Assembly: GCA_008632985.1 (NCBI GenBank)
Contig: QPGO01000128.1
Coordinates: forward strand, 124,001 to 188,000
Direction of reading: 5' to 3'
DNA: 64,000 nt
DNA from: Psammoneis japonica
Taxonomy: Eukaryota
A model generated the notes under the pieces. That model made no database searches and was not told where the DNA came from. It saw nothing but the letters and a program-made list of their open reading frames with translations. This document shows positions 31,728 to 61,070 of the stretch, one piece after another (within the stretch, counting starts at the first letter, position 1; the number at the start of each line of letters is the position of its first letter). The position numbers and the translations under genes were made by a program.

Positions 31728-32337
31728 TATATTGGTGAGTTCGAAAGGCTTTTGATGTAGCTGTCAATGCAAAAAGAGCGGTGGGCGATGGACCAAGTGA
31801 AGTGTTCAGGATTTCAGAGCCGCACAATCCTGCTCAGGGGTGGGGTGAACTTCAACCCGCCGCGAACCGCGAACGCGCGCGAACGCCTAAAAGTAGTAAT
31901 CCGCGAACTCGACTGACACTTCATAGCACTTGTTTCGAGTCACGATAGTTGTTGCAACATCATTTTTAAAATTTGATTGCTGCCTCTACCTACATCTTGC
32001 TGAGATCTAGATATCAGCCCGATACAATACCTTCGGACAAGTTGCTTCATGTTGCTGACTTGTGTCTTGCGTAATTGACTATCAAACATGGTTCGTTTGG
32101 TGTTACAAACCTTGCCGTCCCGCCGTTGACCTTGAGTTCCACGACGTCGCCGTTCTGATGGATTGGACAAGATGCCGAGGCAATTGCTTCGCTGACAGGA
32201 GTCATTAGCGGTGTGAAGATATCGACGAAGGGACGTAGATATATGCCGTGTTGTCGCCGATGCTAGGCTTTGTCACTTGATATCATTGACAACGAACCAC
32301 TGCTTTGTTCCCACCCGATTATCCATCATCTTGCGAG

Positions 32338-34216
32338 CTAGCCTGTATATTCTGGAAAGGTTTCAACCAAGTATTCAATCAACTTGGCTTCTTGGGAGCT
32401 TCTGTCGTGGGCATTGGTTCCAGCGAAATCGTACCGTACCTGCCATTCCTCTTGCGCTTTCATTATTTGTTTAAATCCTCACCTTGAACTCCCGGTAAGG
32501 CTCGTTGTTGGATTTCAGACCCATTCAATAAGGGCTTCAAGTAATTCTGGTCAAAAATGTCATCATTCAGACCCAATCGATCTACCATTAACGTCACCCA
32601 GTGATGGAACAGATTGATAGCCTCGCCGAGCTCTTGATTGGGCATGGCCAAGGCCAAAAGGAGCGATTCTCTCCAAAATGGTCCAATTTGTTTCAATATT
32701 TTGTAACTTGCCCAACGAAAATCAGAAAGGTCGTTCCAACGAGAATCGTGCTCTGAAAGAGTTCCAAAGTGAATACTCGATATCATAAGGTGTTGAACGG
32801 CTGATGACTCCGCGTAAGCCTTTAGAAACGTCTGAAGCGCATTTGCTCCTTTGATTATGCCTTCAATCGATTGGGTGTCGCACGTTGGTTGCTTTAACCC
32901 ATGTATCAGAGCTGATACAAGATAGATCCGTTTCGACGACTCCTTTTGAAGCCTCGAGACTCGACAGGTATCTCCGTCGATGTCGTCATGTCTACAAATG
33001 GCTTGAAAAAGGCTGCATACCAGAGAAATCGACGTCGAGTATCATTCCATTGTGACGGCTCTACAAAGATGCGACTCACAAGGGCCTGTGTACGAGATAA
33101 AAGGCGGATTCCACTCTTGTAAATATACATTGGTGACGCCTCCAATTTCCAGTGTTTTCCTTTGAGAGGAAAAACAAAAGGCATCACGTTGGTTTCCATT
33201 AACAGTTGTACTCCTCTCGTGGGATCACGGGTTTGAAACATCAAATCAATTTCGTTTCCGATACGAGACTTGGATACCTTTTGTTCTAGAGCCCGTCCCA
33301 CGCGCTGATTCAAGGCTGCCTTCTTCAGGTCTGGGTCCATGGAGAAACTGAGTTGCGCCGCAAAACGAATGGCCCGAAGAATTCGTAGCGGATCCTCCAG
33401 CAGTGTCGCAAGCGGTGCCGTCGGAGTCGCAATGATGCCAAGTTGCAAATCTTGCAATCCCTGTTCGGTCCAGTCTTCGACTTGATTGGTGTTAACATTG
33501 TAAAAGAGCGAATTGATCGTCAAGTCTCGTCGCCAGGCATCTTCGACAGCCGAAGCCATGCCTGTTTTCTCCGGAACGCGACTGTCGGGACTGTACTTTT
33601 CAAATCTCAAGTTGCAAAAGTCAATCCAAAAGTTGCCATATTTGACACTGGCCGTTTGCAAGTGTTGAGATCTCGAGCCGTATTCCTTCAGCAACGAATT
33701 ATTGGATGATGCTTCTGATGAAATCTCACAAGCGACATTTTCTTGGTCATCCGTATTGTTGTTGTTTTGTAGAATGTAATTATGAAACAGTTTTGCAAAT
33801 TCACTACCGGACTTGTTGTCAAGTACAAAATCAATGTCGTGTGAAACAGTTGGTTGATAATGATGCAGTAGCTTATCCCGAACCCATCCGCCTGCAATTC
33901 GAACGGTGGTGGATGGAGCGTACTCATCTCGCACTTGTCGTACCAAGTAAAACAGATCCTCTTCTTCCTTCGTCAGTACTATTTTGTTCGTCAAGGGCTT
34001 TGTTTCATAATCATACTGGTAATATCCGCCACTGTCTTTGAGTTTGTAGGAAGATATGTCTTGCAGAAATCTAGAAACACTCGGTGAAGGACGAGGCAAA
34101 TAGCGACAAAACGGCAACTGAAATGCCACTGCAATCCCGGCAGAAATCAGCAAGAAGAAGGATATTTGTGCCTGCATAACAATTGGTGCCGCATTACAAC
34201 GACGGTGGCTTGTCAT
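32338..34216 (-). CDS. CCA1: tRNA nucleotidyltransferase (CCA-adding enzyme, class II); two apparent 1-nt deletions at ~32908 and ~32472
   Basis: VRIAGGWVRDKLL, DIDF, IDFCNLR, EDAWRRDLTINSLFYN, EDPLRILRAIRFA; frame continues LIHGLKQP.. and KQIMKAQEEWQVRY..TFPEYTG* after -1 shifts. Confidence 0.88.
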
Positions 34217-34510
34217 GGGTCATGGGTTGCCTATGTTAGTATCTATAACTATCGCGGCTGCTACATTCAACAAGACGGTGCGTTTTGGTGTTTTTCGTGT
34301 TGGAGGCAAATCGAAAAAATCAAAAATCGGGCACGAATACGTCAGCATCCGGTACTGAGAAACACGTAGAATCTACCTGTGATAAAGCACGTCAGCCCAT
34401 TGTTGCAACAGCAGCAACAAAACAGCAACAGCAATAACATCTCATGTTGACGTTATTTGTATTCTCTTGTCGTTGCGCTTTATATCACTTACTACTCTTA
34501 CAACTACGCA

Positions 34511-38160: not shown

Positions 38161-39572
38161 ATGCCCACTCATGTCCTTATTCGAGTTCCTCCACCGCCGC
38201 AAAGCGAAACTGATACGCCGCGTGCTCGTCGTCCTCGGCTAATCCACAAGAACGATCGTGATGATGCTTTTCAGCATGAGAACCAGCAGATCTCAGAAGA
38301 TGGGGCGGCAGCGGCTGCACAACCCCGATCTCCCATTACCAAGACACCCATTGCAGGCGTGGTTGGATTTCGCTATTCGGTGCGTCATACGAGCAGCAAT
38401 CGATCGTTGCAGCAGCACGTGAGTCGTGATGATATTCGGGGTTCACCACGATTGCAGGGATACCTCTTCATGTTGGTGGCAAGTATTGTCATGCTTGTCT
38501 CGGCCGTCCGCTTTTATATCGATGGTGATGATAAAGATAGTGTTCAAGTCGTACGACGAGAACGTGGGTTAGAAGAAGACGATGAAAACAACGACAATTT
38601 ATTTACTCATACATTTGGTAAGACGATTCCTGGAGACAGAATCGATTCGTGGAAAGACAGTAATTTATTTTTGTGATGCTGGTAGCACTTACTCTTTGGT
38701 GTTTTTTATTATTCCTGCAAGGCTCTCGTGTACTTACATGGAAGTTAGATGGAGCCGTAGTCGTGTCGGCTGCAGCCGTGGGTATCTCAGTCTTTGTCTT
38801 GGTAGTTCACTTTGACTCGGTCTTGCTTCCACAATTCTGGAAAATTGTCTTTCGCGATGGCAGTTACTGGGAACTGGCCCTATTGATTGGATTGCTACTC
38901 TTTTGGATGGGCGCCCTGCACATTTGTACCAGTGCCTTTTCCGTCGGTGAGGTTGCTCCAAACGTCTACTTTACTACATGGATTGCCTTTGCCAGTGCGT
39001 CTGTCAATATTGGTATGTGGAGGAGGGGTGCCGACTTGCCGCTGCTGATCGACATGGTTCGAAACGACAAGCGTGAAACTGTCTATGGGTGGTGTACTGT
39101 CCTGGTCTTTAGTTTGGTGACGGCGTGTTCCATTCTAGAACTCTACGCGAATCGGGATGAATTGGAAATCTTGCTGGAAGGGGTCGTTCAGCAAGTACCG
39201 CAACGCGAATGGAACAAGGCATTGGGAACATCCTTTTCCGCCGTGGGTGTGTCGCTCTTGAATGCTGTTTGCGTGCATTATCTTTCTGACAAGCCCCTGA
39301 GAATTCGTCTTTGTCGAGGCTGGATACTGAACTTGGATTGGAGACAAGTGGAAGGCTTTTGTGTCGTATCCGTTCTGGGCTTGTTTTCGTGGTTTATCTA
39401 TGAGTACACTGGCGTCAATAGCGCTCTCAGTGGTCCATCCAATCCATACTTTGGTTCGTGGGGCGTTTGGTTTTCGTCAGTTCTGACCTTTGGAACGTGG
39501 ATGCGTGAAAACAAACATATTGCGTTTATTCTCCGCAATTCTGAGGATGACACGACAGAAACGGAGAGCTAA
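38161..39572 (+). CDS. multi-pass membrane protein, paralogue B; intron 38618-38721
   Basis: Spliced frame is intact; multiple hydrophobic segments; homologous to 36230-37791. Confidence 0.85.
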
Positions 39573-39843
39573 TAGAGTATTGATCGTATGAGCCTCTACT
39601 TGTTGGCGGGGTGTAAGTATCGACAAGTGCTATCTAGAATGAGTCTATCTGCATCAAAGGCTCTTTCCAAATGCATTGCCTTGAGCTAGAGTACCACCTG
39701 TTCCTGGTGTTGGATAGAGGAGCTATTGAACTACTGCTGATACGGAAGCGTTGAAAATCGGTCCGTTTCATGTATGAGTAGGACGAACAAAGAGTTTGTA
39801 ACGGTGATATCACCAATGGCTAACTTATATCGATAAACCTACA

Positions 39844-41140
39844 TTATTTTCCTCCCTCACCCTTTAGCATGCGCTGTGCCACGGCCGGGGTTAAATACAG
39901 AAGCTTTGAATCGGGAGAAAACATCATTGCCCACATGTGATTGGGCTCTAACGAGGGAACTAATTCAGCTTGAGGCTTATTGCCATCCTCATTGAGATGA
40001 GCCTCGGCGTCTTCGTCTTCACCTTTATGCAACAGGAAACCAGCCATGCCCGCCACAAGCGTGGCTGCATCTGAAATGTTGCTCCAAGCCAAGCTGACTT
40101 TCATCGGGACTTGGTTCCAAACACTCAGCTGCTTCTTGACATAGTCTGACAAACCACTAAAATCGAAACCATTTTCCAAATCCTCTGCCAGAATCTTCTG
40201 CCTGCCCGTCAGGAAAGGGATCAACCACCCGTTGCAGGCCTTTGCTTCCATTGGCTTGCCCGGAAAGCTGCCTCCACCACCCACACATTTTGCACCGGTG
40301 GTGTCCATGAGGATGTTGATCCAGAACTTTGCCACCGCGGGATCATCAGGATTCTTCCTGGCATTCGCCAGATTTGCAAAGACATCCGAGACAGTTTTCC
40401 AAAAATTCGGTCCAAGGCCTGCTTCGGTTTGTATGGGGTTCAAGATCTGGCGGACTCACTCCAGTTTGGTTGACAGACTCTCCCAATCCGCAACACTTCC
40501 CGACATTTCTAGCCCACGCAGACCACAACCACAGCAACGCATCTCGTAGGTGAAGAATTCCTGCAGACTTCCCATCAAGTTAATCTGAGATGCAATCTTG
40601 TGCTCAGCACCAGACGTGCCAAAGTCATTCTGCATTTCTTTTGCAAACTCGGGCATTTTTATCTTGTTCCCAATTTCATGGGCAAATGCTTCAAACAAAA
40701 AGTCGCAGTCTGCATCGCACATGATGTGGCAAGGGAGGTTGATGACAGCAAAATTTGTTGTTGGCTTTTCCAGAATCAATGGGGTGCATCTTGTTGGGAA
40801 TGAGAAGATTTGCCAACCGCTCTGATGGCAGCTTTTGCGTGGGGGTGTCTTTTTCCAAAGCTGCTGCCAAAGATGGCTTCAATCACACATCAAGCTTCAA
40901 ATCAACCAGCACATCACAGTTTCCTTTTTTCTTTGCAATCCTGCGGCTTGCTGCTGTGGAGGACAACTCAACTCAACACAACGATTGCCAGTTGGCACTG
41001 GTGCCCTTTGCGGACTTTGGCCCCCATTGGACCCGACCGGCTGGGGTGCAGAACTCCTTGAAGAAAAGTTCCAGACCGGCATCTAAGAAACAAAAACAGA
41101 AGAAGGGTGTTTTGCGATCGTGCTCAACCCGAAGTTGAGG
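39844..41140 (-). pseudogene. DUF4419-like protein gene, partly eroded
   Basis: QINLMGSLQEFFTYEMRCCGCGLRGLEMSGSVADWESLSTKL motif; in-frame TGA at 40456; 5' half reads PCHIMCDADCDF, consistent with Tyr->Cys. Confidence 0.65.
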
Positions 41141-42129
41141 AGCAACACCGTCAGTTGTCCATTTTGTCAAATTGCGACAGGTCCCTGGTGCAGATTGCCA
41201 CAGTGTTGCCGATGGGTTCCAGTCCCAGCTGCCGAATCAAAAAATTTGCGACATCGCAAAATTTGCGACAAATTCCGAATCCCCGCACAATCATCGTGCG
41301 GCGAGTCGAGAAACAACCCTTGTCACCCTCCAAGATCATCTTTGCGACGCGGCCAACATCCTCTGGTGCAATTCAAGGTGCAGGCGTTCTTTCTACTTCG
41401 ATTAAGAAAAGGCACGATGCACGAGAAATGACAAAAAATCCTTATTTTCAAAGGAAATTGCCTTCTCGTGACAGCAACTCATGCCGACGCATCGCAAGAT
41501 TTCAACAAAAAATGACCTTTTTGGATGATTGCACCGCCTTTCCTCACAAACAAAACGTCGTGTGGCTCTTCATAATGATGACAATCTGATTGGTTTGTTA
41601 TTTCATGTCACTTGCAGACCTTCGGTTGTCGAAACAGTGGCATTTGCTCATTTGAAGCGAAAAATGAAGCACTCAGAGACCTCGCACGTGCTTTCATCGT
41701 GAAAAAATTCGAGCCATTTGTTTTTATGAATTAATTTGCGATTCGCAAATTTTGCGTTTCAGCAGCCAGGTGGGACTTTTTGTGACATTTGCCCCGTAGA
41801 ATTCTGCGTGCGAGCTCTGCAGTTCGTACTGTGGTCAATGAACACACTCATCTTCGACACAAAATGAACGGCCAAGTTTGCAGTGCATGTGTCTCTGTTC
41901 GTACTCGCAGTTTTGGACAATGCGCCTGCCCTGCGCCATTCTTAAGACACTCGAGAATGGCGCAGAAGAAAAAAACATTAAAAGTTGTTGAATGGATCAC
42001 CTGACAATTGCACTGTAAAATGATGCAAAATTTCGCCAAAATCACGTAGAAATGTGCGTGCGCGACATGCGACGTGATTCAAAAAACTGTCAATGTCACA
42101 GTTCAGTGGCACCATGCGAGGTCCCACCT

Positions 42130-45100
42130 AGACCTGGAACACGTCCGCCGGTGAAGCCGTCGGTTTTCCAGACATGTCAAGTGGGTCCCTGGTGCAGCTG
42201 ATGAAATGGAGAGTTGCCAATCTGCCACGATTGTCAGGAGTCAGAATGCTCCTGTGCTTGTGCCTCAACCTCCTGTTCCTGAGAAATGCAACGACGTTTG
42301 GAGGGAGGTCTTACATCGTCATTGCAATTGTTTGTCGGATCAAATTCCTGAATCCTGGGTTGACTGTTGACCCATCTGCGCAGAGCCGCTCGTTCGTCCT
42401 GGAGTTGCACACCGACCCCAAGTTTGCGGGACAGCCGTTCTCGGGCTGCCACAATGTTTGCCAGCCAAGAGCGTTTGAAAGAGGTGGACTGAGAGAGCAG
42501 GGAGACAACGTGACCGCAGAAATGACAGGCAAATTCCCCTGGGAGTCCCTCTCAGCCTCGCTGAAAATGGCGGCGAATCCATGAGTCTAGCTTGTCTCTG
42601 GCTGGCTGGCTTGCTAATTTGAGGATGAGCGGCAGCATTTCTGTGTTCCCACAACCGTTGCGTTGTTCCAACAAGTTGGTGGACCCATCTTCTGACCCAT
42701 TTCGAACCCAATTTTCTAGAGCCTCGGAGCCGAAAATGTTCCTGTTGTAAAAGAGCCCACTCCTTTGCCACACAGCCTTCCAGAAGTCTGTCCCAGCCAA
42801 TGATGCACTGTGACTCAACTGCCTGATGAAGGATTGGGCTAGCGCGAGGGTCGAGGCGGATGTTGATGTGTTGATGACTGCGCCAGGCGGTGAGATGTTC
42901 CTGGATGGTGCTCGCCAGGCCAAAAGCCGCATCGTTGTGATCCACCCAGCGGACATGTTTGCGCAAGAGCGACCTCAACTTGTCCGCAGCCTCTGAGCAG
43001 GTGACAACGTGCGCAGTGTCTTCGTTGTCAGCATCACACCGGGGGCATCGCAAATGATCCTGAACCTTCCAGCGTTTCAGCCATTTGCCCACTCCACACA
43101 TTCCTGCCACGTGTTTGGCCATCCACCGTCATTTGCCGATGCCAAGATTCTTGGCGACTGTCTCGATGACGTCCCAATCGATCCTGCGGAAGCCCTCATT
43201 CGCAAAGCATCGTTTTTGTTCGATCCAGCATTTTGCCAGCCGTGTGCCGTGAACATGATGATGCAGCCGCTCACCAAGCTTTGTCGAGATCTTGTGTCCT
43301 CCAATGAAAACACCCCACATTTCATCTTCGATGTCAAACTGTCGTGGAAGCCTTTCCTGAGGGTCCAGTTGAGCTTCATGTTGCCATCGTGCTTTAGCCA
43401 GGTTGTCCATCTCAACATTCAATCTTGCCCATCTGTCGAGTCTTCTGCATCGTAGAGTGTCTTGATGTCCTTTGACCCACCGGAATTTCCACCGCAGTGG
43501 GCTCTTGGCAATTTTTTCCTTGATGGCGCTTAAAATGTCAAAGTCGTTGGACCGGGCAGTGATGGGAAGAGTGGGGTCCGACGATTTCCGTGGGGCTTGT
43601 TTGCCATCACAGGCGATTTCAATTGCTCCTTGTTGAACATTGTGATGCAGACAGATGTCTTCAACCGTGCAGACAATGCTGTGGAGACCTGCTGTCTCCG
43701 CTTGGCAGGAATTGGCATCACCAGGGTGACCTGGCAAAATGTTGGCACCCGTCACTGGGTGAGTTTCTCGTTCCCCTCGGACAGTGAATGCCGATGTTGC
43801 AAGATTGTCTTTGGCTGACCCATCACTGACCGCAATGGCTGCGCCTGACTCGGTGGCATTGGCAACATGCAGTCCATCATCATCGACAGTGACTTTGTCG
43901 TTTGCCCACTGTCGGGCCGGAGGTCGTTGACGGAGTCGCTGAAGAAGATTGATCGGACCTGGAGCTTCCTGTCTGGGTCTCGTGCTGGTGGACCCCGAGT
44001 GACAAATTCCCCATCTGTCCTTGCCTTTGCAGCATGCGCGAGTGCGTTGAATGTCGTTGGGCGGTTCGGTCAGTCCAGACGGAACAAACCGGCAATGATG
44101 ATTCCTCGTTTGCCTGCTGCTCGACAACCTGAATGAGTGCCACAGGTTGTTCTGACCCCATTGACACAGACGCTGTTCCGACAGAGAATGGAGCCACTGC
44201 CAGTGGGAATCGTCAACTCCAGCATCGGGAAGCCAGTTCCCTGAGGATTGGTGTGATCGCCTTGCATGGACACTGGTTGCCCATGTAAAGCAGTGCCTCA
44301 GAGCAGTGCGCCACGTTGTCCAATCTGTGGCCTTCGGACATTGTTGCGGGGGCCATTTGCATTGTGGCCAAAAAAAGGTGTCCTTCTTTCCATTCCACAT
44401 GTCACAAAGAATTTCACACCCGTTGCCAGTTGAGATGTCAGCAAGTGTTGCGACATTCAGGAAGGCACGGCACCGATTGAGAGCCTGCAGCTTGGCCCCC
44501 CTGAAGCCTTCATCTGCAAATCTTTCCATGAGAAACGCGTCATTCTCACGTGAGAGAGTCAGCGACGGTGCATCCTCGTTGTTGCTGATGTTGTGGCTGG
44601 ACAGACATGTCTGCAGATGCTTGACCCATGACTTGGCAGCCAGGCATCCAATTGTTTGTGACATGAGCTCGCAAGGAAGGAGCTTCCGATTCCGATTTCC
44701 AGCTTGTGTTTCTCCACGAGTGCTCGGAGAAGTTGTCCCGTGATCGTGTCTGCTTTTCCGTGTTTGACAAATGCCTCGACGTGTTTCCTGTACATGGTGG
44801 AGGCAATCCATTCGAATCCGAGGCCTTGCAGTCGGATCGGAACCGCGCACAACAGCACGGGGAAAGGAGCTGCACAGACCCAATCTCGGAAGGCCTTGTT
44901 TGAGAAGTGGTGCTTCGACACATCTGCATTCTTTCGACGACAGAGTGAGGGCAAGGAGAGGGCAGTTGAGTGCCTTGCAGACTCTTTGAGTCAGGGCAAG
45001 CCACGCATCAGCCTTAGAAAGATGACCCGATCGAGCCCGATCCGCCCAACCTTCAGCGTGTTTCCGGAGTTCTTCCACCGCAGTCCTGCAGTTTCCATCG

Positions 45101-45360
45101 GGGGCCAACCACACTCCTGGAGTTTTCTTGGTGATGGAAGGCGAAAGTCGTTCAATCAGGTGTCTTGTTCCCTCGTCATCCTCTGCGCACATCTGTGGGT
45201 CATCCTGATCATCGGGGTTGCTCTCCTTGTGAACGCACTCCCATCTGCCATTGGTCCATTTGAACTCTGTTAAATGCCACCAGCATTTGTCCGGGCGGGT
45301 GTCGCCTCCCGCAACTCTCATGAAAAGAGTCCGTGTGACTCTACGCCAGACTGGCACTCA
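42130..45360 (-). mobile_element. non-LTR retrotransposon (LINE) ORF2 3' part with RNase H and Cys/His knuckle
   Basis: GGDTRPDKCWWHL.EFKW.NGRW, AIAVSDGSAK, IEIACDG, FRWVKGHQD, LNVEMDNLAK, CPRCDADNEDTAHVVTC; no Tyr in the 742 aa ORF. Confidence 0.88.
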
Positions 45361-45364
45361 CAGA

Positions 45365-48300
45365 CGACTTTGGTCCTGTGGCGCCAAATGGATGTGTGAT
45401 GTCCGACGCATGATTGCGACCAGTGCATTGGACATGGGAGGATGAGTCCCAGAAGAGGAGGTGACAGGTTCAACACCCGACATCTCTTCCCTCTCTCTCT
45501 TTGATTGGCATCAACCTGTGCATTGCCACATGCCTGTGGCAGAGTTCCCACACGAAAAGAAGTGCATTGGCCGTTGGCTCGGCGCAGCTGACAACTGCAC
45601 TGACAACATGGCATTCATCATTTTGCCCGAATCAGGCAAACCCATCATTCGGAAGGATGTGTGGGCCACACCGGAGGATGACCTTAAAACTCCGGCGATC
45701 CAGACGGATCTTGCATCGGTCGATCAAGCTTTGATCAAACGGCTCAGCATCCCGGAAAAGGGTGCCAGTGCTGACTTCCCTGAACTCCCTGACGACTTCA
45801 TGGACGAATGGGACGATGCCGTTGAACCCGTGGAACCCGACGCTTCCAAACTGGAAGCTGATGAGCACACCCCGGAAGGGCTAGATGAATGTCTCACAGC
45901 TCAAGTCATGTTGCCACGAGGAGGCGAGCTGACTCATGCCAGGGTCATTGCACGCAAGTGAGACAGCGACGGGGTGCCTGTTGGCACTGGGAACGACAAC
46001 CCTGTCCTAGACTCGAGGACATGCGATGTGGAATTCCCTGACGGATCCACCGATTCCTTTGCTGCCAACGTAATTGCAGAGAACCTGTTCACTCAGATCG
46101 ACTCTGAAGGGAATGCCTGCCAGATCATGAAGGAAATGGTTGATCACCAACGTGATGCCCATGCCGCAATGGCCAATGATGGGCACACAACGACTGAGAC
46201 TGGCAGGCGTGCTCCCAGGAGGACGACCGCAGGCTGGGACCTGCAAGTCAAATGGAAGGATGGGGCTGCATCCTGGGTTCCTCTCAAGGATTTGAAGGAG
46301 TCCAATCCAGTCAAGATTGCTGAGTGCGCTGCAGCGAACAAAGCAGTTGGTGAACCAGCCTTTGACTGGTGGGTCCGAGACGTCTTGCGTCGCAGGTCAA
46401 GGATCCTGAAGAAAGTCAAGTCACGTTGCTGGAAACGTGCGCACAAGTTCGGAATTGAACTCCCAAAATCTGTTGAGGAAGCCATGGAGATAGACAACAG
46501 AACGGGGACCGACTTCTGGTTCAAGGCCATTGAGAAGGAAATGCGTGACGTCATGCCTGCGTTCGAATTCCGCGATGACGACACTGTGCCGGTCGGGTGC
46601 AAACACATTGATTGTCATGTGATCTTTGACATCAAGAGCACCCTCCAACGTAAAGCGAGGTTCGTGGCCGGAGGCCATCAAACCGATCCACCCAAGGAAT
46701 CGACACATTCCAGCGTGGTGTCGCGTGACAGCGTTAGGATGGCATTCACTGCAGCAGCTCTGAATGACCTGGAGGTCCTGAGTGCTGACGTTCAGAATGC
46801 CTGCTTGAACGCACACACCAAGGAAAAGTGTTGCACCACTGCTGGCCTGGAATTTGGGAAGCAGAACGAGGGAAGGCCGGTGATCATTGTCCGTGCCTTG
46901 TGTGGTCTCAAGTCTTCAGGTGCAAGATTTAGGGAACATGTGGCAGCCACTCTGCGGGACGCTGGGTTCGAGTCTTGCAAGGCTGACCCGGATGTCTGGA
47001 TGTGGGCTGTGGTTAAGCCGGATGGCTTCAAGTGCTGGGAACATGCACTTGTCTGTGTGGACGACTTGTTGTGCGTCTCCCATGAACCTCAGAAGGTCAT
47101 GGATTGTGTGAGCTCCAGGTGCACGCTCAAGGACGGAAGTGTCTGCGAACCGGAAGAGCACTTGGGCGCCCAGATCAGAAAGTGCCAGCTGTCTGACTCG
47201 GATGGCAAGACACGCTGGGCCATGTCCTCTGACCTTCATGTCAAAAAGGGCATCAGCTGATGTTGAATTGGAGCTTAAGAAAACTGACAGGCATCTTCCG
47301 ACGAAGGCGTTGACGCCCTTGAGCTCGGGACATGGGCCTGAACTGGACGGTTCACCTGAGTTGAATGCCAAAACGGCTAACTGCTGTCAAGGCCTTGTTG
47401 GTGTGCTGCGGTGGGCAGTTGAACTGGGGCGAGTGGACATTTTTGTCGCTGTCTCGCTCATGTCCTCCTGCTTGGTGGCACCACGAGTTGGACACCTGGA
47501 CGAGGTGCTCCATGTCTTTGCATGCTTGAAGGCTCGCTCCAAGTCTGCGCCAGTGTTCGACGACACTGAGCCCGTCTTTGACGGGAGTCACTTTGCCAAG
47601 TGTGATTGGGAAGAATGTTGCCCTGGCATGGCTGAACCAATGCCGCCGAATGTGCCGGAGGCACGCGGGAACAGCGTGACCACCACTTGCTTTGTCGATG
47701 CTGATCACGCCGGATGCCGTGTGACGCGCAGGTCCCACACTGGGATCCTGACATTTGTCCAATGAGCGCCCATCTTGCATTGCTCTAAGCGGCAGAATGC
47801 CGCAGAGTCCTCTGCTTTTGGGTCGGAGTTCGTGGCCATGAAGACTGCAGTGGAGCAAATCGAAGCCTTGCGTTGCAAGCTTCGGATGCTCGGAATCCCC
47901 CCATGGATGGGGCCACTGACGTTTTCTGCGACAATGAAGCTGTCTTCAAGAACTCAACTAAACCGGAGTCCACTTTGAAGAAGAAGCATGATGCAATTGC
48001 CTGTCACAGGACTCGTGAGGCACAAGCCGCTGGAACAGTGCGCATTGCTTGGGAAGACGGATGCACGAATCTGGCGGACGTGCCAACCAAGTTGTTGCCT
48101 GGACCGAAGCTCCGGGAAATCACAAGTCATGTCCTGTGGTGAGTCCCAAAAGGGGACAAACCAAACGGGTTTGCCGCGCAGGTGCGGCTTTTCCCACCCC
48201 CAAAACACAACTGCCACCCTGGAATGGGGCAGCATCAGGTTGCATTTGTCTGTCGATCTGACCCAAGCGGAGCCAGTGTCAGTTCGAGGGGACTGAATAA

Positions 48301-48400
48301 ATGCTGATGTGCTGTCACGAATGTGGGCAGTTTATGCACTGTTGGCAATTGGTCCACTGTCACTTGATCAGTGGCCCCAGCAGCGCAACATCTCACAATT
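45365..48400 (+). mobile_element. Ty1/copia (CoDi-like) LTR retrotransposon, 5'-truncated: integrase tail, RT, RNase H, PPT and start of 3' LTR
   Basis: TGSTPDIS, RKARFVAGGH, SSVVSRDSVR, DVQNACLNA, ALCGLKSSGA, VCVDDLL (YVDD), FVDADHAG..TRRSHTG, FCDNEAV, NLAD..TK; gaggggac then TG at 48294. Confidence 0.93.
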
Positions 48401-48404
48401 CTAG

Positions 48405-49430
48405 AACCTGTTGATGCTGTTCAACACTCTGTCTTGTCTTGCACCCAATTCTTGGCTGTCATGGCAGCATTTGTTCAGATCCATGGTCTCATGCTCACAT
48501 TGCAGTCAGACGGGTGACGCAGATGCGACAGGTGTTCTCTTGCGCACTGCGTCGCTCCTGGTGGAAATTCATGCGATCCATCCAGAACAGCATTGGAGTG
48601 GGGGCCAACTCCAAGAAATTGCACATCATCAATGAGAGGCTCCTGCACAAGAGCGGTGTGATGCGTTTGGTGAAGTCTTGACTTGCAGTCTTGAAGCGCT
48701 GGAGCTTCCATTTCCTCTTTTTCAGCAATCTCTTGATCGGAGCCGTCTGCTTGTTTCTTGAGGAGGCGTGTGAGTGGGGATCGGAGAGGTTTGCCGGAGA
48801 TCCAATTTGCTCTGTGATTCTGCTCCCTAGACTCTTCGCAGTTGATGAGCACTCGCAGTTGTGTTTCAGCATCAGAGTTGTTGGCTCTGGCCAGCTGATC
48901 TGCTCTTTTCTCCAGAAACTTGCGTCGGTGGTCGGGAGCGTCTTTGGCGATTGCTCGACATTCTTCACAGCGTTGTGATGGATCTGCCTCTAACTGGACA
49001 AGAGTGAGGTTGTGCACTTCAAAGTCTCTTGATTTTCTTTCCAGACGGCACATTTTCCGAGAACTGATCGTGAGGCGTTTCCATCGGCGAATTAAAGCGT
49101 GGTGCAATTCGATGCGTTTGGACGCTCGTTTGAGCTTGGGAGACCAGGACTTGCCTCCCATGCGAAGCTTTCTGCATTTCTTGTCGGCAAGCCACATGCC
49201 TTGAACTCGGAGTTTGTCAATTCTCTCCCATTCATCGGTGAGTTTGGGTTGCGGGGGACAAGTGGCCTGCTTTTCATTTCGAATGCTCCTGCTGGGAAGA
49301 TTGTGTGCTGGTGCATGGTCTTTGCGGATTTTGTTGAATCTGCTCACTGTGACTGGATCATCAAGTTTGAGTCTCCGAGTGGGATGCCTTTCGAGTTCCG
49401 GAGGAAGAGTGCCAAAAGCGGTCTGATGCT
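48405..49430 (-). mobile_element. LINE ORF2 upstream part (endonuclease-RT linker)
   Basis: RRLKLDDP, ADKKCRKLRMGGKSWSPKL, same strand as 42130-45360. Confidence 0.75.
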
Positions 49431-52400
49431 GTGGAGGACAACATTGCATGAGGGGGGGGTTCCTGCAAAGGGAGTGATTCAAGGACATTCTCATTTGACT
49501 CTTGCCGCTGCCTGCAAAGTTGCGCAACATCTTCTAAATGCAACAACTGAGTTGCACAATGATGCAACTCAATCAGTTGCAAGTTGATGGTCAGAGAGAG
49601 CAAAGCAAGTCTTGCCTGATGGAGCTGAGGTGATCAAGTCTCGTTTTGACAGGTGACAAGCTGCAGAGCAAGCTGGAGAAAGTCAATGCCGTGCACAAAG
49701 AGATGTTCCATCTGTCTGACAGTGTCGACTCTGATCAGTGAAAGTTCAGTCATGTTTTCCTGGATGATGACAATGTTCGATCATGAGGTTCTACACAAAG
49801 CAAAGGAATGTCTCATTTCCTGTCACTCTCCACCCCCTTGAATGGAGTGAGTGAATGTGGACAGCATTCAGGGAAAGAATGTGAGCAGGAACAAGCCAAA
49901 GGGCACATTCAATCATCACCCAAATTGTTTTCTTGGTGCCTTGAGTTTTTGCAAGGATGTCTCTGTGAGTTGACTGTCTGTGGGGCCCACACCAGGACAT
50001 GATGCTGGTGACCCACACAAGAGGAAAATGCTGTGACCCCCTCTCGTCAGCTGACATGTTGGCAACACTGCTCAATGTGTCATGTGCACTTGGTCTGCTG
50101 ATCATTGGTGCTCATCTGAACAGTGACCTTGTTGTCCAGAAAGAGAATGGCAGGAGCAGCAGCAAGACATTGGGGGGCTCAGTTGAGCACTTCTCTTGGC
50201 CAACCCCAACAAGGTGCAAGCGAAGTCTTGCAAGCATGGCAACATGCAAAAGTGAGCAACTGCCACAGCACTGGCACAAGCACCCATCCACTCAGACTCT
50301 GCAGAAGATGTTGTGAAAAGGGTGGAGAGAGATGGGCTGGCGCGTCAAATGTTGCCCCATTGAAGAAAATCACAGTTCCGACAGTTTTGATCTCCTGGCA
50401 CATCAGGGCAGCCCTCCTGCCAGCTCTCATCTCAGTGAACACAATGGACTCCAAATGACTGATGTTTCAAGCTTTGCAAATTGTCAACACTGGGCTCTTA
50501 GATGAAAAAACCAGATCTAAATTTTGCAGTGCCATCACTCCTTTGCCAGCTGTGCTGGTGCCGGCTGACCCACACCCCCAGCACACAGCAGTCAATTGAG
50601 GCAGGAGCGCTTGCATGGGATCAGCTGGAATGGGCATTGCCAGAAGGTGTGACACCCCGCCAAGACAACAATTGAAAAGGAATGATTCACACGAGGGATT
50701 TGTTGCATGCTTGTTGATGACAGCCACAGAAGGCACACCACAACTGTGGTGGACAATTGCACTCGGATGTGTTTTTAGAACAGTCCACAAAAGGAGCCTT
50801 GAAGGTGAGACAAAAGCAGGTCATCGGAGAAAACATTCATGGCATGTAGAAACAACACTGAGTCTTGCATGGAAAAGCTGATGAGAGCAGCAAACTGAAG
50901 ACAATCAAATGGCACCACAGGATGACTTGCGCTCTTGCTGAAAAGGGCCGCAACAGAAGCAGCACATTCGCTGCAAAGAGTGAAGTGCTTGATTGCACAG
51001 CAGAGAAAAGAAGAGAGGTTGAAGACCAATTGGCAAGGAGACAAAAGAAGCAGTCCAGTGAAGTGACACACAGACAGTCAGTGGCAACACGCAGAAACAA
51101 CACCAGATCTTGCATGGAAAAACCAATGGGAGCAGCAAATGGACGACAATCAAGTGGCGCTTGCACCACAAAGAGTGAAGGACTTGATTGCACAGCAAGG
51201 AAAAGAAGCAGCATTGAAGACCGATTTGAAAGGACAAACGTGGGCCAGCGAAGTGACGTGCAGATTGTCAGCAGCATCTGCAGATCCGTGCAGAATTTGC
51301 ACTGGAACCTGTGTGGAAAATTTTGCAGACAACAGAAAATTGTGAGAAACAACAACCAGCATGCAAGCCAACAGGTCACAACACTCATTTTGTTTTCCAC
51401 TGATGAGCTTTGCTCATCATGCTGCAACAAGGATGCACCATTGGCAAACGTGGACAGAATGGGCTTGTTGGAGCCAAATCAACACCATCTGAGAATGGCA
51501 ACATCAGCATGAGAACACGCACAGAAACACATGTGGGAGGTTGCCAGTGGGTGCTCATGCAAAAGAGCACTGGGCTCTTAGATGGATCCCAGCAAAGCTC
51601 AGCTGTCAGATCCTGGTGGCTCTGAAGACAGCCAAAGAGATGAACAAGGGCATCAAAGTCATCAATGCCAAGGCCAGCGACAGAGCCTTGGCAAGCTTGC
51701 AAGTGTCCCAGAGGATGTTTGCATGGGTGTCACAGGCAAGGCAGATGATTGAACAGAGGACAGGCCAAAAATTCAAGCCAGGGTGCTTGGCAGCAACTGC
51801 CTTGGCATCCACCTCTGACTTGAGATGACTTCTTGCCTTGGAGCACACAACGGACAGGAGCTGGTGCATCTTGGAATGCTGGGCTGTCCTGGCAGCCCAG
51901 TGCTGTGGCAAGTCATGAGCAAAGAGCAACAATGTTCAAGGGGGAAGGAGCCATCCTTGTGTCAATGGATGTGCATCCTCTGAAAAAACCAAGTCACATG
52001 GTCGCTGAACATGGCGCTGGTGCATTTGGACTTGACGAGTTGATCAAACTCATCCTTTTCAACTTTCAACATGACAATTGCCAGAGCCAAAACTGATGAT
52101 GTCATTGGCACAGAAGATCAACTTGAAACACAAGCTGTCAAGGAATTGTTGAGCAAAGGGACAAGAAGGAGGGGGGCGCAGGTGCAGACATGCAATGTTC
52201 GGAACAAAAAAGGTGCGTGCCCATCACCAAAAATCAACATTGTTGTCATGTTGTTCATGCAATGCTGACATGAAACAACTTGTTTGCTGCAAAAGAAGGG
52301 GCCAAGAACAAGCTGCAGTTGAGGTCCAGAATGTGCCACACAACCAAAAAAACAAGGTTGGTGGGAAAGCCTTGATCATCCTTGAAGCAGAGCACAGTTG

Positions 52401-54130
52401 AAACTTTTGTTGCATTGAGAGCAGTGCTCAGCAGTGTTGGCAGGGACCCAACAATCAGTGCTGTTCTCAAGATCATCATGTTGCACATTGTGAGAGGACA
52501 TGTCAGAGTCAACCATCCAGCTGCAAATGTTGCTGAGGTTGGTGTTGCTTGACAAGGGATGTTGCAGGCATGCAATCAAAGAACAGTCAAAAGGACATTT
52601 TCTTGAATTCAGAGAGAGAGAGAGAGAGAGCAAAGCAGGCCTTGCTTGATGGAGAGCTGAGGTGATCACAAATCTCATGCCAAAGAAGGGCAAGACAAGC
52701 CAGAGCAAGTGGAAGAAAGTCACACAAAGAGATTTTCCAGACATTGTGAAAGGATCAAAAGCCAGCCTCTGATCCAAAACAAAGTGGTTGACAGAGTTGT
52801 GTTTGAGAGAGCAAGGAGCCTCTCCAAGAACTGTGTCAACCCCAATCAGCAAAAGTTCAGGCAGCCATGGCTTTTTGGATGAGGGTGACAATGTCTGGAC
52901 ATGATGAGGTTCTGCACAAAGCATGGGAATGGTCATTCCCTGTCACAAGTGCACTGCAGAGTTTGCAAGACACACATCCAGTTGTGGGGCATTGCAGATG
53001 TGTGGACATGATGCTTCATGCTGTGCAAGTGCAGTTTGTGGGCACTGTTGCTGCGGGAGCTGCTCCAGTGCATGCTGTTGCTCAGCTCATTTTTTGAAGT
53101 GTCTGATTTTTGGCTTCACCATCATTGTCATCTCATGTGCATTTTGGCCATTGCAGAGAATTTTTAATCTTGAAAACAATCACAAAGAGTGTCTTTTGGG
53201 TTGGCAGCATCAAACAAACATGCACTCAGTCAGAAGTGCCACAGAAACAGAAAAAAGTGCCAATCTGTCTCCTGTGGAATGATGTTCACAACACCCACCT
53301 GCCAAGGAACAACAAGCACAAGGGTTGGAAATGTGCTCTGAATTGGAGCAATTGCAGCCAGATGCACTGCTGTTTGCTGGCATGATGTGCAGCATTTGCC
53401 ACAGACTCTGGGTTCTGATTCTGCAACTCTCACTCCAGGTTTTGTCTGACAGAAAAACTCTACAAAATGCTGCACTGCTGCAGTGCTCACACAACTTGTG
53501 CACAGAGAAACACCCAAGAACATGCCAGTTGTGTTTTCATGACACCCTTGACTTTAACCATTGTCAAATGGAAACACTCCTCATTTGCAAAGCATTGCGC
53601 TGGCATCTTGCAAATGTGCATTGACAGTTGTTGCCATGCTCAAGCAACTCCCACAAGGCAAAGCTGCTCTCAAGTGTCATCACACCATGTGCAGCAAGCA
53701 GGCATGCAAGGGTCATTGCAAGTGGTCATGATCAACATGACTAATTTGCCAATCTTTGGATGCATCATCAAAACAATCTGGGGTTCTGAACTTCTGTGTT
53801 TTTTTTTGTTGCCAGAAGCACCAGGAGCGGCATCACCTTTGTTCTTCTTGTGCAAGCAGCCTGCTTCTGACAATGCCTGAATGGCCTCCACCACTGCGTG
53901 CCATCCTTTTCCCTCAAGGTCAGGAAACATTTGTCCCAAATTCTTTGAGGAAGACATCCTTCAAACTCCTCTGCCTCACAGCAAGTGCACTGGAGCTCTT
54001 CACTCACCGGAGTGACAGCAAAATGGCAATTGCCTCTGCAGTCATCTGCTTGGAGGGCACCTGAATTTGATGCACCTCAGAGGCAGAGATGAGATGTTGG
54101 ACTTGTGGGCAGAGTCCTGGGATGTTTGTG
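49430..54130. repeat. heavily eroded repeat mosaic
   Basis: 49594-49830 resembles 52624-52945; 49434-49560 resembles 55966-56090; 50863-51040 resembles 51109-51235; both TA and CG depleted. Confidence 0.7.
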
Positions 54131-54137
54131 TGCACCA

Positions 54138-55965
54138 TCTTTCTGCGACAAGCTGCTGAGAATTCGTCTTTGTTGGTGTTGGATGCTGAACTTGGATTAA
54201 AGACAAGTGGAGGGCTTCTGTGTCACATCCATTTTGGGTTTGTTCTCAAGGTTTGTCTGTGAGCACACTGAGTGGTCCATCCAATCCATGCTTTGGTTTG
54301 TGGGGCATTTGGTTTTCGTCAATTCTGACTTTTGGAACGTGGGTGCATGAAAACAAGCATGTTGCATTTGTTCTCTGCTGTCGGAAGATGACACAACAGA
54401 AATGGAGAGCTGGCAGAGTGTTGATTGCATGAGCCTCTGCTTCTTGGCGGAGTGCAAGCATTGACAAGTGCTGTCTAGAATGAGTCCATCTGCATCAAAG
54501 GCTCTTTCCGAATGCATTGCCTTGGGCCAGAACATGCTGAAAACAACTTGTTCCCAGTGTTTGACAGAGAAGCTGTTGAGCAAGCACTGTGGTTGCTGCA
54601 GAAGCATTGGAAATGGGTGCGCACAATGTACAAGCAGGAAGAACAAAGGGAGTGCAATGCTGACATCATGAGTGGCTAACTTGTGTCGCTAAACCTGAGT
54701 CATTTTCCTTCCTCACCCTTGAGCATGCACTGTGCCATGGCCGGTGTTAACTGCAGAACCTTTGAGGTTGGGAGAAAACATCATTGCCCACATGTGATTG
54801 GGCTCTGACAAAGGAACCACTTCAGCTTGAGGTGACAACTTGTTGCCTTCCTCAATGAGATGAGTGCCGGCATCTTCGGATTCACCTTCACGCAGCATGA
54901 AACCAGCCATGCCCGCAACAAGCGTGGGCGCATCTGAAACGCTGCACCAAGGCAAGCTGACTTTCATTGTGACTTGGCTCCAACCACTCAGCTGCTCTTT
55001 TACATCCTTTGAACCACCAATTTCCATGGGCTCACCCGGCATGCTGCCTCCACCACCCACCACACATGTTGTGCCCCGTGGTGTCCATGAGGATGTTGAT
55101 CCAGAACTTTGCCACCGCAGGATCGTTGGGATTCTTCCTGGTGTTGGCCAGATTTGCAAAGACATCCAAGACGGTTTTCCAAAAATTCGGTCCAAGGCGC
55201 ATTTCGGTTTGCATGGGCTTCAAGATCTGGTGGACTTGCTCAAGTTTGGTTGACAGACTCTCCCAATCCGCAACATTTCCTGACACTCTGGCCCACGCAG
55301 ACCACACCCAGCAATGCATCTTGCAGGTGAAGAATTCCTGCAGACTTCCCATCAAATTAATCTGAGATGCAATCTTGTGCTCAGCGCCAGACATGCCAAA
55401 GTTGTTCTGCATTTCTTTTGCAAACTCGGGCACTTTGATCTTTTTCCCAATTTCACAGGCAAATGCTTCGAACAAAAAGTCGCAGTCCGCATCGTGTGTG
55501 GTGCAGCAAGGGAGATGATGGCAATGTTTTCTTTGCCTTGATGAGAAACAAACAAGTCTCTCACCTTTTGCGATGATGCACGGTTTGGCTTGGTGGCCTC
55601 ATTGACAGCCTTCGCAGTGCAACAGGCAATGGGAAACCGCCAGTCTTTGGGAGATGTGCACAGGATCTAATGGTTTTTCCAAGCTTCAAAGATGCACCCA
55701 AAGAGACCAAAATGCCAGGACAGCAAACTTTGTCATTGGACTTTCCAAAAAACCAACTTCGACGTTGGAAGTTGGACTTTCCAGAACCAACAGCGCACGT
55801 CTTGTCGGGAATGAGAAGATTTGCCAACCGTTCTGATGGCAGCTTTAGTGCAGAGGTGCTTTTTCAAAGCCTGCTGCCAAAGATGGCTTCAATCAGGCAT
55901 CAAGCTTCAAATCAACCAGGATGTCATAGTTGCCTTTTTCTTGGCAATCTTGGGCTTGCTGTTGA
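54138..55965. pseudogene. eroded segmental copy of 39281-40965 (3' end of membrane paralogue B plus the DUF4419-like gene)
   Basis: Colinear alignment: gagaattcgtctttgt, tggtccatccaatccat, gtgtccatgaggatgttgatccagaactttgccaccgc, ctgctgccaaagatggcttcaatca. Confidence 0.95.
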
Positions 55966-56829
55966 GGAGGACAACATTGTGAGAGGGGGGTTTCCTGCAA
56001 AGCAAGTGATTCAAGAGCATTTTTTCAACTCTTGTCGCCACTTCTCTCCAACTGCAATGGATTTTTTTTAGAAAAGCATGGAGTTGCACAAACCTCATGC
56101 GAGTTCAGTCATGCTGTGACTCATTCAGTCGGGAGCACAGGTGTGATGTGCGGAGCTCATCATCCGAGATGCAAATGCCTTCCACAGTCAATCACGACAC
56201 TGATCAATCAATCGCGGATGTGCATTTTGGGCATCACCACACATCGTCAAGGCATGCACCAGGGTGCCAAATGCATCATGGTTGACAAAACTACGAAGAG
56301 CAGGACTTGAGACGATGCCAGACAGTGGGTTGTTGAGAGACAACTGGCCAATGCCATTGTCGCGCATTCCATGTGGTTCGCACGCGCGGCGAGGCATGAA
56401 CTCGAGTGGTTTTTTCATGAAGGTCTCACATTTGGATGTGGTCATGTCTTGTTTTGTGCACTTTCTGCAAAGCCATGCAGAAAAACAAGGGAGTTTAGAG
56501 CCGGGTTTCAGAAAAAAAGATTTGATTTTGTGGGTCATGTTTTCGTCATTTCCTCAACACCCATCGCCTCAGCCAATGGGCCACACCCAAGCTCTTTTCC
56601 TTGTTGCACTGAGTTTGCAATTTACGTTCATGTCGACGTTTCAGTTGACAAAAATCAGACAAACAAGAGCAAATGCAAGGAGATGCGGTGGTGCTTTTCA
56701 CCTCTCAATGTGGCAAGCATTTGAGATTTTGAATGATGCAGTGTCTGAAGCATGTTTTGAACCAGCTGCAAATGACGCACATCTGACTTGCAACAGGCCA
56801 GCTTTCAAATTGTCTTCTTCCACAGAGTG

Positions 56830-60015: not shown

Positions 60016-61070
60016 CTTTCAATAATATATACCGGTAGAATTGTAATGGCAGAGAAGGAACAGCAATGAATGAATGACGGTTGCGTTGTTAGGTGATACC
60101 TGGTATGTTTTATGTTTACAGTATGTCATGGTCATGGTCCGAAGGCGACAGTTACAACGCCGCAACAACCGTAGCAAGTGCTTTAGAAAACCTCGTACCT
60201 CGTACTCTCTCTCTCTCTCAACCTCCGTCGTCTGTTATCACCCGTGTGCCAGGGCTCACAATGGAGTCCCTTGTATCCGCACTCTCTAGCAGCAGGAACT
60301 AGACTACCGTGAAGCACCGAGAGACTCAATACATCCTTGACAGCACCGGTTGGTTGGTCTTCTATTGCCATTTGACTGCACTGTGCCATGCGGGCCTGTG
60401 GAAAATGTTGCAAAACAAAAGAAGAAGCAGCTGCGTGTTGCCCAACGACATCTCAGGAGCTGCGAAACTGTTGAACCTGTCCCCACAACCAAAGAAAATG
60501 GAGGAGCTGCAAACCAGCTACATTCATCTCCACAAGACTCCATGGAACAACGTGCATCCTTCATTTGCCAAATGAAAAAGAAAAGAGCAAGGGTGTCTTC
60601 GTTGAAACAACCGTGAAGGGTCTTGTGTCTTTTTCCACAGCACGAGAACAACCAATGCAAGACACACCCTGTTTGGTGCTCCACCAGTCCCTTTTGAAAT
60701 GGTGAGCCAGGATCGTGGAATGCTGATGCGAGAAAGCCAGACGACAAACAAGAGCCACCAGAGGCGATTCCCCATTGGTCGGCAAATCTTGGCGGATGCA
60801 AAGGCCTGCAGACAATTGACAAGGACAGTGCAGAGGATGACAGTTCACCAGATTCACAAAATGGTGTTCTGGTGGAATGAGCATGCCAACGGCACAAAGT
60901 GTTTGAGAAGAAAGAAACAGAATCTGTGGAGCAGTCCAAAGCAGCAGAAAGGCTTGGCGCCCTCATGTTTGTTTGGTGTTGACGATTGCCGTGCTGTTGC
61001 CGTTCGTGCCGAACTGGCATGTGCCAAAGTGAGAAAGTCAGACTGCCAAGAGAAGTGAACATTGGTGTGT

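Follow-up and report, generated by a model that had tools for sequence, protein, structure and literature searches.

The DNA examined here is a 64-kb stretch of the Psammoneis japonica genome (64,000 nucleotides; assembly GCA_008632985.1, contig QPGO01000128.1, positions 124,001 to 188,000 of the forward strand), hereafter referred to as the window, and all positions are counted from its first letter. Its frames are long and intron-poor, as fits a diatom host, and it also contains pieces of a Copia-type retrotransposon and of a long interspersed nuclear element (LINE) in which the dinucleotide TA has become exceedingly rare. On the basis of per-kb dinucleotide statistics and a 250-bp segmentation, the window was partitioned into a normal and an eroded fraction. 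Normal DNA has a TA observed/expected ratio (o/e) of 0.58 (about 0.5-0.7), a CpG o/e of 0.99, and a CA/TG o/e of about 1.2. Eroded DNA makes up about 36 kb of the window and falls into six blocks (Table 1), in which the TA o/e is 0.02-0.15, the CA/TG o/e is 1.4-1.8, and the CpG o/e is 0.18-0.76, with the extent of CpG loss varying among the blocks. In the blocks eroded most heavily, AT and AC/GT are scarce as well and GC is enriched. The block edges are sharp relative to the spacing of TA sites, such that eroded DNA directly adjoins normal DNA. The block at 10930-13110, for example, is bordered by TA sites at 10914 and 13118 and has sites inside it at 11047 and 12694. Both the Copia and LINE pieces sit within the largest block, 40001-59250.

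Table 1. Features of the 64-kb window (o/e, observed/expected ratio; Y, pyrimidine; R, purine)
Feature	Coordinates	Strand	Remarks
Eroded block	501-4750		TA o/e 0.06, CpG o/e 0.23; 18 TA, 13 YTAR
Eroded 2.2-kb block between two normal tandem paralogues	10930-13110		Only 3 TA
Small eroded block	16751-18250		TA o/e 0.08, CpG o/e 0.62
Most eroded block	22251-28500		TA o/e 0.02, CpG o/e 0.18
Largest eroded domain	40001-59250		TA o/e 0.04-0.15, CpG o/e 0.22-0.76, CA/TG o/e 1.4-1.8
Eroded block	60501-63250		TA o/e 0.07, CpG o/e 0.64
Copia-type (RVT_2) pol fragment, eroded	45361-48290	+	13 TA: 10 YTAR (TTAA, CTAG, TTAG, CTAA), 3 RTAR (GTAA x2, ATAG)
LINE-like (non-LTR) retrotransposon fragment, 5'-truncated, eroded	42130-45360	-	14 TA, 8 YTAR
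Very high-copy element, partly eroded	41285-42568		TA o/e about 0.17, CpG about normal; summed word depth 11,468-30,502 (run X1)
Normal copy of duplicated segment, polarised reference	39266-40142	+	Eroded copy 54123-55005 (pair A1)
Sharp normal/eroded edge inside duplicated segment	39978-40026		20 TA in 39715-39978 vs 9 in 40026-41084
DUF4419 pseudogene part, eroded	40244-40967	-	DUF4419; paralogue 55020-55975 also eroded; E=1.5e-17 and 2.8e-17 for the two
Eroded frames with faint Helicase_C match and helicase-associated (HA) domain repeats	57616-59064	+	Pfam; no transposon domain found

The loss of TA has direct consequences for how eroded DNA reads as protein. In the six frames of the most eroded block there are 317 TGA, 6 TAA, and 5 TAG stop codons, and because TAA and TAG are nearly absent from eroded DNA, the long open frames found there in all six frames are by-products rather than genes. 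We scanned the 74 frames of at least 130 amino acids (aa) from the eroded blocks with Pfam (73 together and the 74th, the Copia frame, separately). No match was obtained for 68 of the 73. The loss of all tyrosine codons, together with changes at isoleucine, valine, and leucine, leaves Pfam blind to eroded domains. No viral hallmark or other viral gene was found among the 74.

The Copia and LINE pieces have abundant relatives, which indicate the direction in which the sequence changed. The named relatives of the Copia piece come from the diatoms Fragilaria crotonensis and Epithemia and are at most 66% identical to it. Its 432-aa frame (45962-47260) was aligned with 14 of the 120 relatives listed, giving 199 columns conserved at ≥80%. 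All 13 conserved tyrosine columns are changed in the window frame, to cysteine in nine instances (TGY), to histidine in three (CAY), and to phenylalanine in one, such that the YVDD box now reads CVDD. Accordingly, tyrosine accounts for 0 of the 432 residues compared with 4.1% in the relatives, while cysteine has reached 4.2% compared with 1.2%. For the LINE piece we found 5,054 relatives; six of them (1,827-1,937 aa) were scanned and jointly match Exo_endo_phos, RVT_1, and zf-RVT, mostly below the Pfam cut-offs, and the window frame corresponds to about residues 920-1640 of these proteins. In the window itself, 42340-43128 has a weak zf-RVT match, and the frame at 43132-45357 (742 aa) has no Pfam match. 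When the latter was aligned with 19 of the 150 relatives listed, it was found to contain no tyrosine at all (0/742 vs 2.7% in the relatives), with both conserved tyrosine columns now encoding cysteine. None of the 120 Copia or 150 LINE relatives among the matches listed was poor in tyrosine. From these protein alignments and the duplicate pairs described below, TA is the ancestral state and TG/CA the derived one. A search with normal letters found no long terminal repeat (LTR) pair for the Copia piece. Its summed word depth in sequencing run X1 is 4,800-7,200, compared with about 40-170 in most other bins, although summed depth is not copy number. The partly eroded high-copy element at 41285-42568 could represent either a solo LTR or a repeat that is younger and very abundant.

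The original prediction, made from the letters of the Copia and LINE region, held that the eroding process targets 5'-TAY-3' and that YTAR sites survive because they read TAY on neither strand. Across the whole window, the 36,000 bp of eroded DNA retain 139 TA sites, comprising 77 YTAR (55%), 54 mixed (YTAY/RTAR), and 8 RTAY, whereas the 27,500 bp of normal DNA hold 1,116, comprising 169 YTAR (15%), 602 mixed, and 345 RTAY (Fisher odds ratio 7.0, p=6.8e-24). The YTAR share was above baseline in all ten eroded sub-blocks, and in seven of these at p<0.05. Expressed as site density relative to normal DNA, 0.35 of YTAR sites remain, compared with 0.07 of YTAY/RTAR and 0.02 of RTAY. As a second baseline, we used 80 related Copia loci from metagenomes (403 kb), which have a TA o/e of 0.46-0.87 and TA sites divided into 33.5% RTAY, 49.7% mixed, and 16.9% YTAR; not one of these 80 loci contains an eroded 1-kb window. 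Thus, the YTAR result is independent of any comparison between transposons and genes, and TA poverty is not a lineage trait of the element. A chance share of about one quarter had been assumed for YTAR, but the measured baselines are lower (15% in normal window DNA and 17% in the Copia loci), making the excess larger than was first stated. Among the earlier counts, those for Copia (13 TA, including 10 YTAR, with no plus-strand TAY) were reproduced exactly, and those for LINE (about 15 TA, 9 YTAR) agree closely with the recount in Table 1. In the 10930-13110 block, said to hold only TTAG and CTAG, both are indeed present, but the third TA site, a TTAT, had been overlooked.

We next considered all ten distinct NTAN classes under a strand-wise model, which assigns every strand of a site its own survival factor according to the base 3' of the A on that strand. 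The model fits the ten classes well (deviance 4.4, 6 degrees of freedom, p=0.63; p=0.66 with the Copia baseline) and yields per-strand survival factors of 0.67 for TAA, 0.50 for TAG, 0.15 for TAC, and 0.09 for TAT. Read as exponential decay, these factors correspond to a loss of TAY about 4-6 times faster than that of TAA and about 3 times faster than that of TAG. Uniform depletion of TA was rejected (p=7e-28), as was a palindromic target consisting solely of RTAY (p=3e-17), because the mixed classes are depleted 14-fold, unlike YTAR. This depletion of the mixed classes argues for recognition of a half-site on one strand. Fresh creation of TA cannot produce the bias, since the precursors of YTAR (YTGR/YCAR, 25.6/kb) and of RTAY (RTGY/RCAY, 24.7/kb) are equally abundant in eroded DNA, yet 77 YTAR and only 8 RTAY survive. 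The gains follow the same rule, with the predicted product classes YTGY/RCAR at 10.2/kb and the unpredicted RTGR/YCAY at 3.1/kb. The motif is graded rather than absolute, as TAR sites are also attacked, about 4 times slower than TAY according to the survival factors. At the surviving TA sites of eroded blocks, the position two bases past the A is itself an A in 45% of cases, against 28% in normal DNA, with a corresponding enrichment of T at the position two bases ahead of the T. The relevant context may extend past the trinucleotide.

Duplicated segments with one normal and one eroded copy provide a polarised view of the same process. Within pair A1, the 41 TA sites of the normal copy correspond in the eroded copy to 19 TG, 16 CA, 5 TA, and 1 other. 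Over pair A as a whole (A1-A3), only 2 of the 36 non-YTAR sites were kept, compared with 4 of the 10 YTAR sites; of the remaining YTAR sites, 5 had become TG/CA and 1 had changed otherwise, in keeping with the earlier remark that YTAR protection is not absolute. Counted per strand, the A->G share was 16/19 for TAC, 13/31 for TAT, 5/20 for TAA, and 4/22 for TAG, with all other contexts at ≤0.19, so that 29/50 TAY but only 9/42 TAR were changed (p=6e-4). The mixed sites are particularly informative, because the model specifies which of their two strands should be hit: YTAY gave 10 TG and 4 CA, RTAR gave 6 CA and 0 TG, and the changed base matched the strand-wise model in 16 of 20 mixed sites. 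Trinucleotide specificity with TAY as the target is therefore supported by the survivor model, by the polarised pair, and by the direction of change in mixed sites, with the refinement that the preference is graded. On the 5' side, the A->G share in pair A was 0.58 for TAY, 0.17 for CAY, 0.10 for AAY, and 0.04 for GAY, with TAR at 0.21. In an older pair (31947-33542 normal, 25400-27705 eroded), A->G change had reached 0.49 of AAT, 0.34 of AAC, 0.32 of GAT, and 0.31 of CAC, while NAR contexts stood at 0.03-0.13. Taking all pairs together, 99/513 NAY and 43/637 NAR were changed (p=1.4e-10). A 3' pyrimidine thus matters beyond TA sites as well, with a 5' T strongly enhancing the effect.

TA decay and CpG decay always co-occur in the blocks. 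In pair A1, the 36 CG sites of the normal copy have become TG/CA in 23 cases and are kept in 11, and over both duplicate pairs the loss by 5' base was 0.42 for ACG, 0.44 for TCG, 0.28 for CCG, and 0.20 for GCG. In the younger blocks (40001-49000 and 60501-63250), the o/e values imply that TA was erased about 5 times faster than CpG. The CpG loss in eroded domains presumably proceeds through 5-methylcytosine (5mC), in which case it would probably tie TA erosion to DNA methylation.

The targets of erosion are not limited to Copia and LINE, but also include DUF4419, helicase-like, and CCA-adding enzyme pseudogenes as well as intergenic DNA. The two DUF4419 copies (Table 1) read TG in one and CA in the other at 16 sites, indicating that each was eroded independently after the duplication and hence that the process acts in place. 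Within the most eroded block, 25400-27705 is a decayed copy of the normal segment 31947-33542, and part of the CCA-adding enzyme gene is contained in it. A tblastn search with the frame of that enzyme (32909-34219, minus strand) matched 27292-27654 (E=3e-11), and the functional copy is of normal composition. The helicase-like frames contain HA domain repeats at 58495-59194, where direct repeats (58596-58989 and 58802-59194) become visible only after purine/pyrimidine recoding. A sharp edge between normal and eroded DNA runs through the duplicated segment itself: its left 730 bp (39266-40000) are normal, whereas its own right half and the partner copy are eroded. A seeming joint from 54826 to 40019 was set aside, being attributed to a comparison that started at 40001, as a contig of the 39-40 kb copy matches the 54 kb copy on the left. 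Plus-strand CA and TG are about equal in most blocks. They do differ at 42001-49000 (p=2e-5), but the context-free pair RTGY and RCAY, balanced in 9 of 10 blocks, shows no bias, and a replication or transcription asymmetry was consequently not adopted as an explanation. Editing of sense transcripts is excluded by the presence of tyrosine-to-histidine changes (a coding-strand T) beside tyrosine-to-cysteine changes. Overall, the evidence points to a process that acts on DNA and on both strands and follows domains, rather than RNA or homology.

The eroded sequence was also reproduced by other contigs. Contigs from run X1 match eroded stretches without differences at a depth of 30-43, for example at 44013-44403, 49233-49638, and 55973-56578. 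Other X1 contigs differ from the window at 644 places, 566 of which are transitions; of the 40 such places that were classed, 14 read TG/CA in the window against CG in other copies, and 7 read TG/CA against TA. Indels and transversions, which are to be expected of old pseudogenes, are likewise present in the eroded copies, making up 39 of the 148 differences in pair A1.

From this evidence we propose, with a confidence only a little better than even, that silenced blocks in this diatom undergo a DNA-level, strand-symmetric, domain-bound hypermutation of TA to TG/CA, likely by a TadA/ADAT-like or other adenine deaminase. What the window shows directly is the direction of change, its context and strand symmetry, the limits of the domains, and action in place, whereas the lesion would be adenine deaminated to hypoxanthine by such an enzyme recruited to silent chromatin. 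The targets would be silenced blocks, i.e. transposons, their remains, and neighboring pseudogenes. One strand would be read at a time, with A->G fastest in T-A-Y, about 4 times slower in T-A-R, and slower still in other N-A-Y contexts; YTAR, being TAR on both strands, would last longest. The process would be confined to sharply bounded domains that are also losing CpG. Changes that are transition-only, strand-symmetric, half-site directed, graded, far faster than CpG decay, and limited to domains are what would be expected from an enzyme that attacks a single base on a single strand. The original prediction had read the context as pointing to an enzyme rather than to compositional drift; the trinucleotide rule behind this argument held, and an enzyme is what such a context would reasonably suggest. 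In their natural tRNA targets, TadA and ADAT2 act on A34 preceded by U33, and the target of TadA itself reads U-A-C. On DNA, TadA-derived adenine editors are described as preferring YA, with YAY favored over YAR, and YAC in the case of an early version (PMC12528748). The family shares with the present process a preference for a 5' T (or Y), for YAY over YAR on DNA, and for A-to-G as the product, but its described members either act on tRNA or are Cas9 fusions engineered to edit single strands that are exposed. We know of no natural genome-defense role of TadA/ADAT2 in diatoms. A bolder version of the proposal is that diatoms, and perhaps SAR (stramenopile, alveolate, and rhizarian) protists more widely, possess a natural DNA adenine deaminase that would be recruited to silent chromatin, read 5'-T-A-Y on each strand, and permanently disable transposons and dead genes by converting TA to TG/CA, as a genome defense mirroring repeat-induced point mutation (RIP) of fungi. 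This we offer tentatively, as a possibility falling somewhat short of an even chance.

The closest known counterpart is found in the chlorarachniophyte Bigelowiella natans. The main text of a recent preprint reports 231 de novo mutations in integrated giant-virus and virophage regions of its genome, all but one of which were A-to-G or T-to-C, all of these at TpA (Mettrop et al., bioRxiv 10.64898/2026.01.13.699255). According to the same text, the bursts arose in only some mutation-accumulation lines, the TpA events occurred at about 1000 times the background rate in the cultured lines, and the genome contains 124 TpA-poor clusters rich in CpA and TpG, with TpA-poor genes enriched in reverse-transcriptase and transposase domains; an ADAT2-like adenine deaminase is proposed by its authors (10.64898/2026.01.13.699255). 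Both systems exhibit almost exclusively A-to-G/T-to-C change at TpA, yielding TpG/CpA, and confinement to particular regions; mobile-element domains are over-represented there, and here Copia and LINE are among the targets alongside pseudogenes. They differ in that the host there is a rhizarian and here a stramenopile, and that erosion in the window is near saturation (TA o/e 0.02-0.15) and known from its end state alone. A 3' neighbor rule is not given in the main text of the preprint, which never uses the words 'trinucleotide', 'context', 'flanking', or 'CpG', although its supplementary tables might list neighboring bases; the strand-wise reading, the co-decay of CpG, and pseudogene targets are likewise unmentioned in that main text. 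This preprint was the one report that a literature search for TpA hypermutation turned up, and searches for TA-directed hypermutation in diatoms found no paper.

Several other explanations were weighed. The same context might arise through thymine chemistry, whereby the T in 5'-R-T-A would be modified, for instance to 5-hydroxymethyluracil (5hmU) or 5-formyluracil by an oxygenase of the TET/JBP type as a silencing mark, then mispair with G and end as C. A T->C change in RTA describes every count equally well, erosion shares its domains with CpG loss as the by-product of an epigenetic mark would, and dinoflagellate 5hmU is said to favor TpA. On the other hand, we know of no thymine-modifying enzyme with an R-T-A rule. 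The graded preference for Y-A-Y over Y-A-R also matches what is described for TadA-derived adenine deaminases (PMC12528748), and the B. natans authors too favor adenine deamination in their main text (10.64898/2026.01.13.699255). We therefore regard thymine modification as unlikely, albeit the most serious competitor to adenine deamination. Only slightly less probable is a RIP-like process triggered by homology, in which duplicated DNA would be sensed, perhaps in a sexual stage, and all copies mutated at TA. Most eroded DNA indeed is or was repeated, with Copia and 41285-42568 reaching very high summed depth, and the eroded pseudogenes are duplicates. However, not all copies were mutated: the duplicated stretch at 39266-40000 is untouched despite the erosion of its partner and of its own right half, the functional CCA-adding enzyme copy is normal, and so are the tandem paralogues at 7713-10313 and 13605-16201. 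Conversely, the heavily eroded stretches 48989-50272 and 51557-59250 have a low summed depth in run X1, and the base change is the opposite of that in fungal RIP. The evidence thus favors silent chromatin domains as the target over RIP-like sensing of homology.

Both Copia and LINE are retroelements, and ADARs favor a 5' U, as noted in the discussion of the B. natans preprint (10.64898/2026.01.13.699255), so ADAR-like A-to-I editing of transposon RNA, fixed by reverse transcription and insertion, might be envisaged. Such editing is contradicted by the equal attack on both strands, with tyrosine-to-histidine beside tyrosine-to-cysteine changes, and it would also have to explain why pseudogenes that are not retroelements and intergenic DNA are eroded, and how the two DUF4419 copies came to be eroded independently in place. 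Moreover, ADARs have to our knowledge been reported only from animals, and we consider this route very improbable. Least probable of all, in our estimation, is that no targeted process exists and that the blocks owe their pattern to native composition, to selection, to GC-biased gene conversion, or to an artefact arising at modified bases during base calling or assembly. TA is scarce in most genomes, including the normal DNA here, and the eroded blocks are slightly richer in GC; however, the related Copia loci keep their TA, the loss of every conserved tyrosine demonstrates the polarity of the change, and the accompanying loss of function rules out selection for it. Gene conversion would neither single out TA nor read the 3' base, and an artefact is difficult to reconcile with the indels and transversions of eroded copies or with exact matches to contigs at a depth of 30-43.

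A number of points weigh against adenine deamination as we propose it. The enzyme is a candidate named from sequence context, and an A->G change in TAY is formally equal to a T->C change in RTA on the opposite strand. The ancestral TA content of old blocks is an estimate from normal DNA and the related Copia loci. The polarised sample is small, with 46 TA sites in pair A, 41 of them in A1, and it is only pair A that yields T>C>A>G as the ranking of 5' bases, similar to that of TadA editors; part of the CAY->CGY signal there could be CpG loss in the 'normal' copy. TAC and TAT also exchange ranks, since TAC is above TAT in the young pair and TAT above TAC in the survivor fit. Finally, run X1 is perhaps the source data of the assembly, in which case its contigs are supporting evidence rather than independent proof against an artefact.

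Several other known systems can be compared with the process. Fungal RIP is likewise transition-only, dependent upon a dinucleotide context, and active on both strands, and it destroys transposons and duplicates in place, leaving compositionally odd blocks. It converts CpA to TpA, however, thereby gaining TA and lowering GC, whereas here TA is destroyed and CA/TG made; it is also triggered by homology, whereas here a duplicated 730-bp stretch escaped and the edges follow domains. CpG decay through 5mC shares the limitation to silent domains and accounts for the loss of CpG to TpG/CpA in the same blocks, with WCG above SCG (W, A or T; S, G or C), but it covers the CpG part only, as TA loss is about 5-fold faster in young blocks and has no known link to 5mC. 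Animal ADAR and APOBEC enzymes similarly cause deaminase-driven hypermutation of mobile elements with neighbor preferences, but they act on one strand, on RNA or cDNA, and on retroelements only, whereas both strands and pseudogenes are affected here.

The process is of a kind already known, though described only very recently; the window extends it to a second, distant lineage and supplies new detail. Before the 2026 preprint on a single chlorarachniophyte, no targeted A:T-to-G:C hypermutation of DNA was known, and its occurrence in a second, unrelated, and ecologically weighty lineage would show that it is no curiosity. Relative to the main text of that preprint, the window adds a three-base rule that is read strand by strand, with TAY preferred to TAR. 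Such a rule points to an enzyme that handles a single base on a single strand, and it provides a concrete test for candidate deaminases. The window also offers evidence for the targeting of entire silent domains rather than of homologous repeats or of viral DNA in itself, and it ties erosion to CpG decay and hence probably to DNA methylation. In practical terms, eroded DNA misleads gene finders through long false frames, and Pfam misses the domains within it. If a natural DNA adenine deaminase is truly behind the erosion, it would be a counterpart of the engineered adenine base editors and of interest as a tool.

Several further features of the window were observed. At 4936-6054 lies a proteasome Rpt6 frame sharing 91-93% identity with proteins of diatoms (Bacillariaceae, Cylindrotheca, Craspedostauros, and others); the searched collections contained no entry identical to it. 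The tandem paralogous gene segments that flank the eroded 10930-13110 block are 71% identical to each other and normal in composition, and this block looks like an insertion between them; their 406-aa and 416-aa frames match no Pfam family. No tandem repeats were found within the eroded blocks. The only two tandem arrays of the window both lie in normal DNA, one at 21164-21362 inside an FG-GAP repeat gene (42-bp unit, 4.7 copies) and the other at 7201-7330 (66-bp unit, 2 copies). Inside the most eroded block, 24001-25000 has no tandem repeat, but its plus strand is strongly skewed towards purines (GC skew 0.39, AT skew 0.27).

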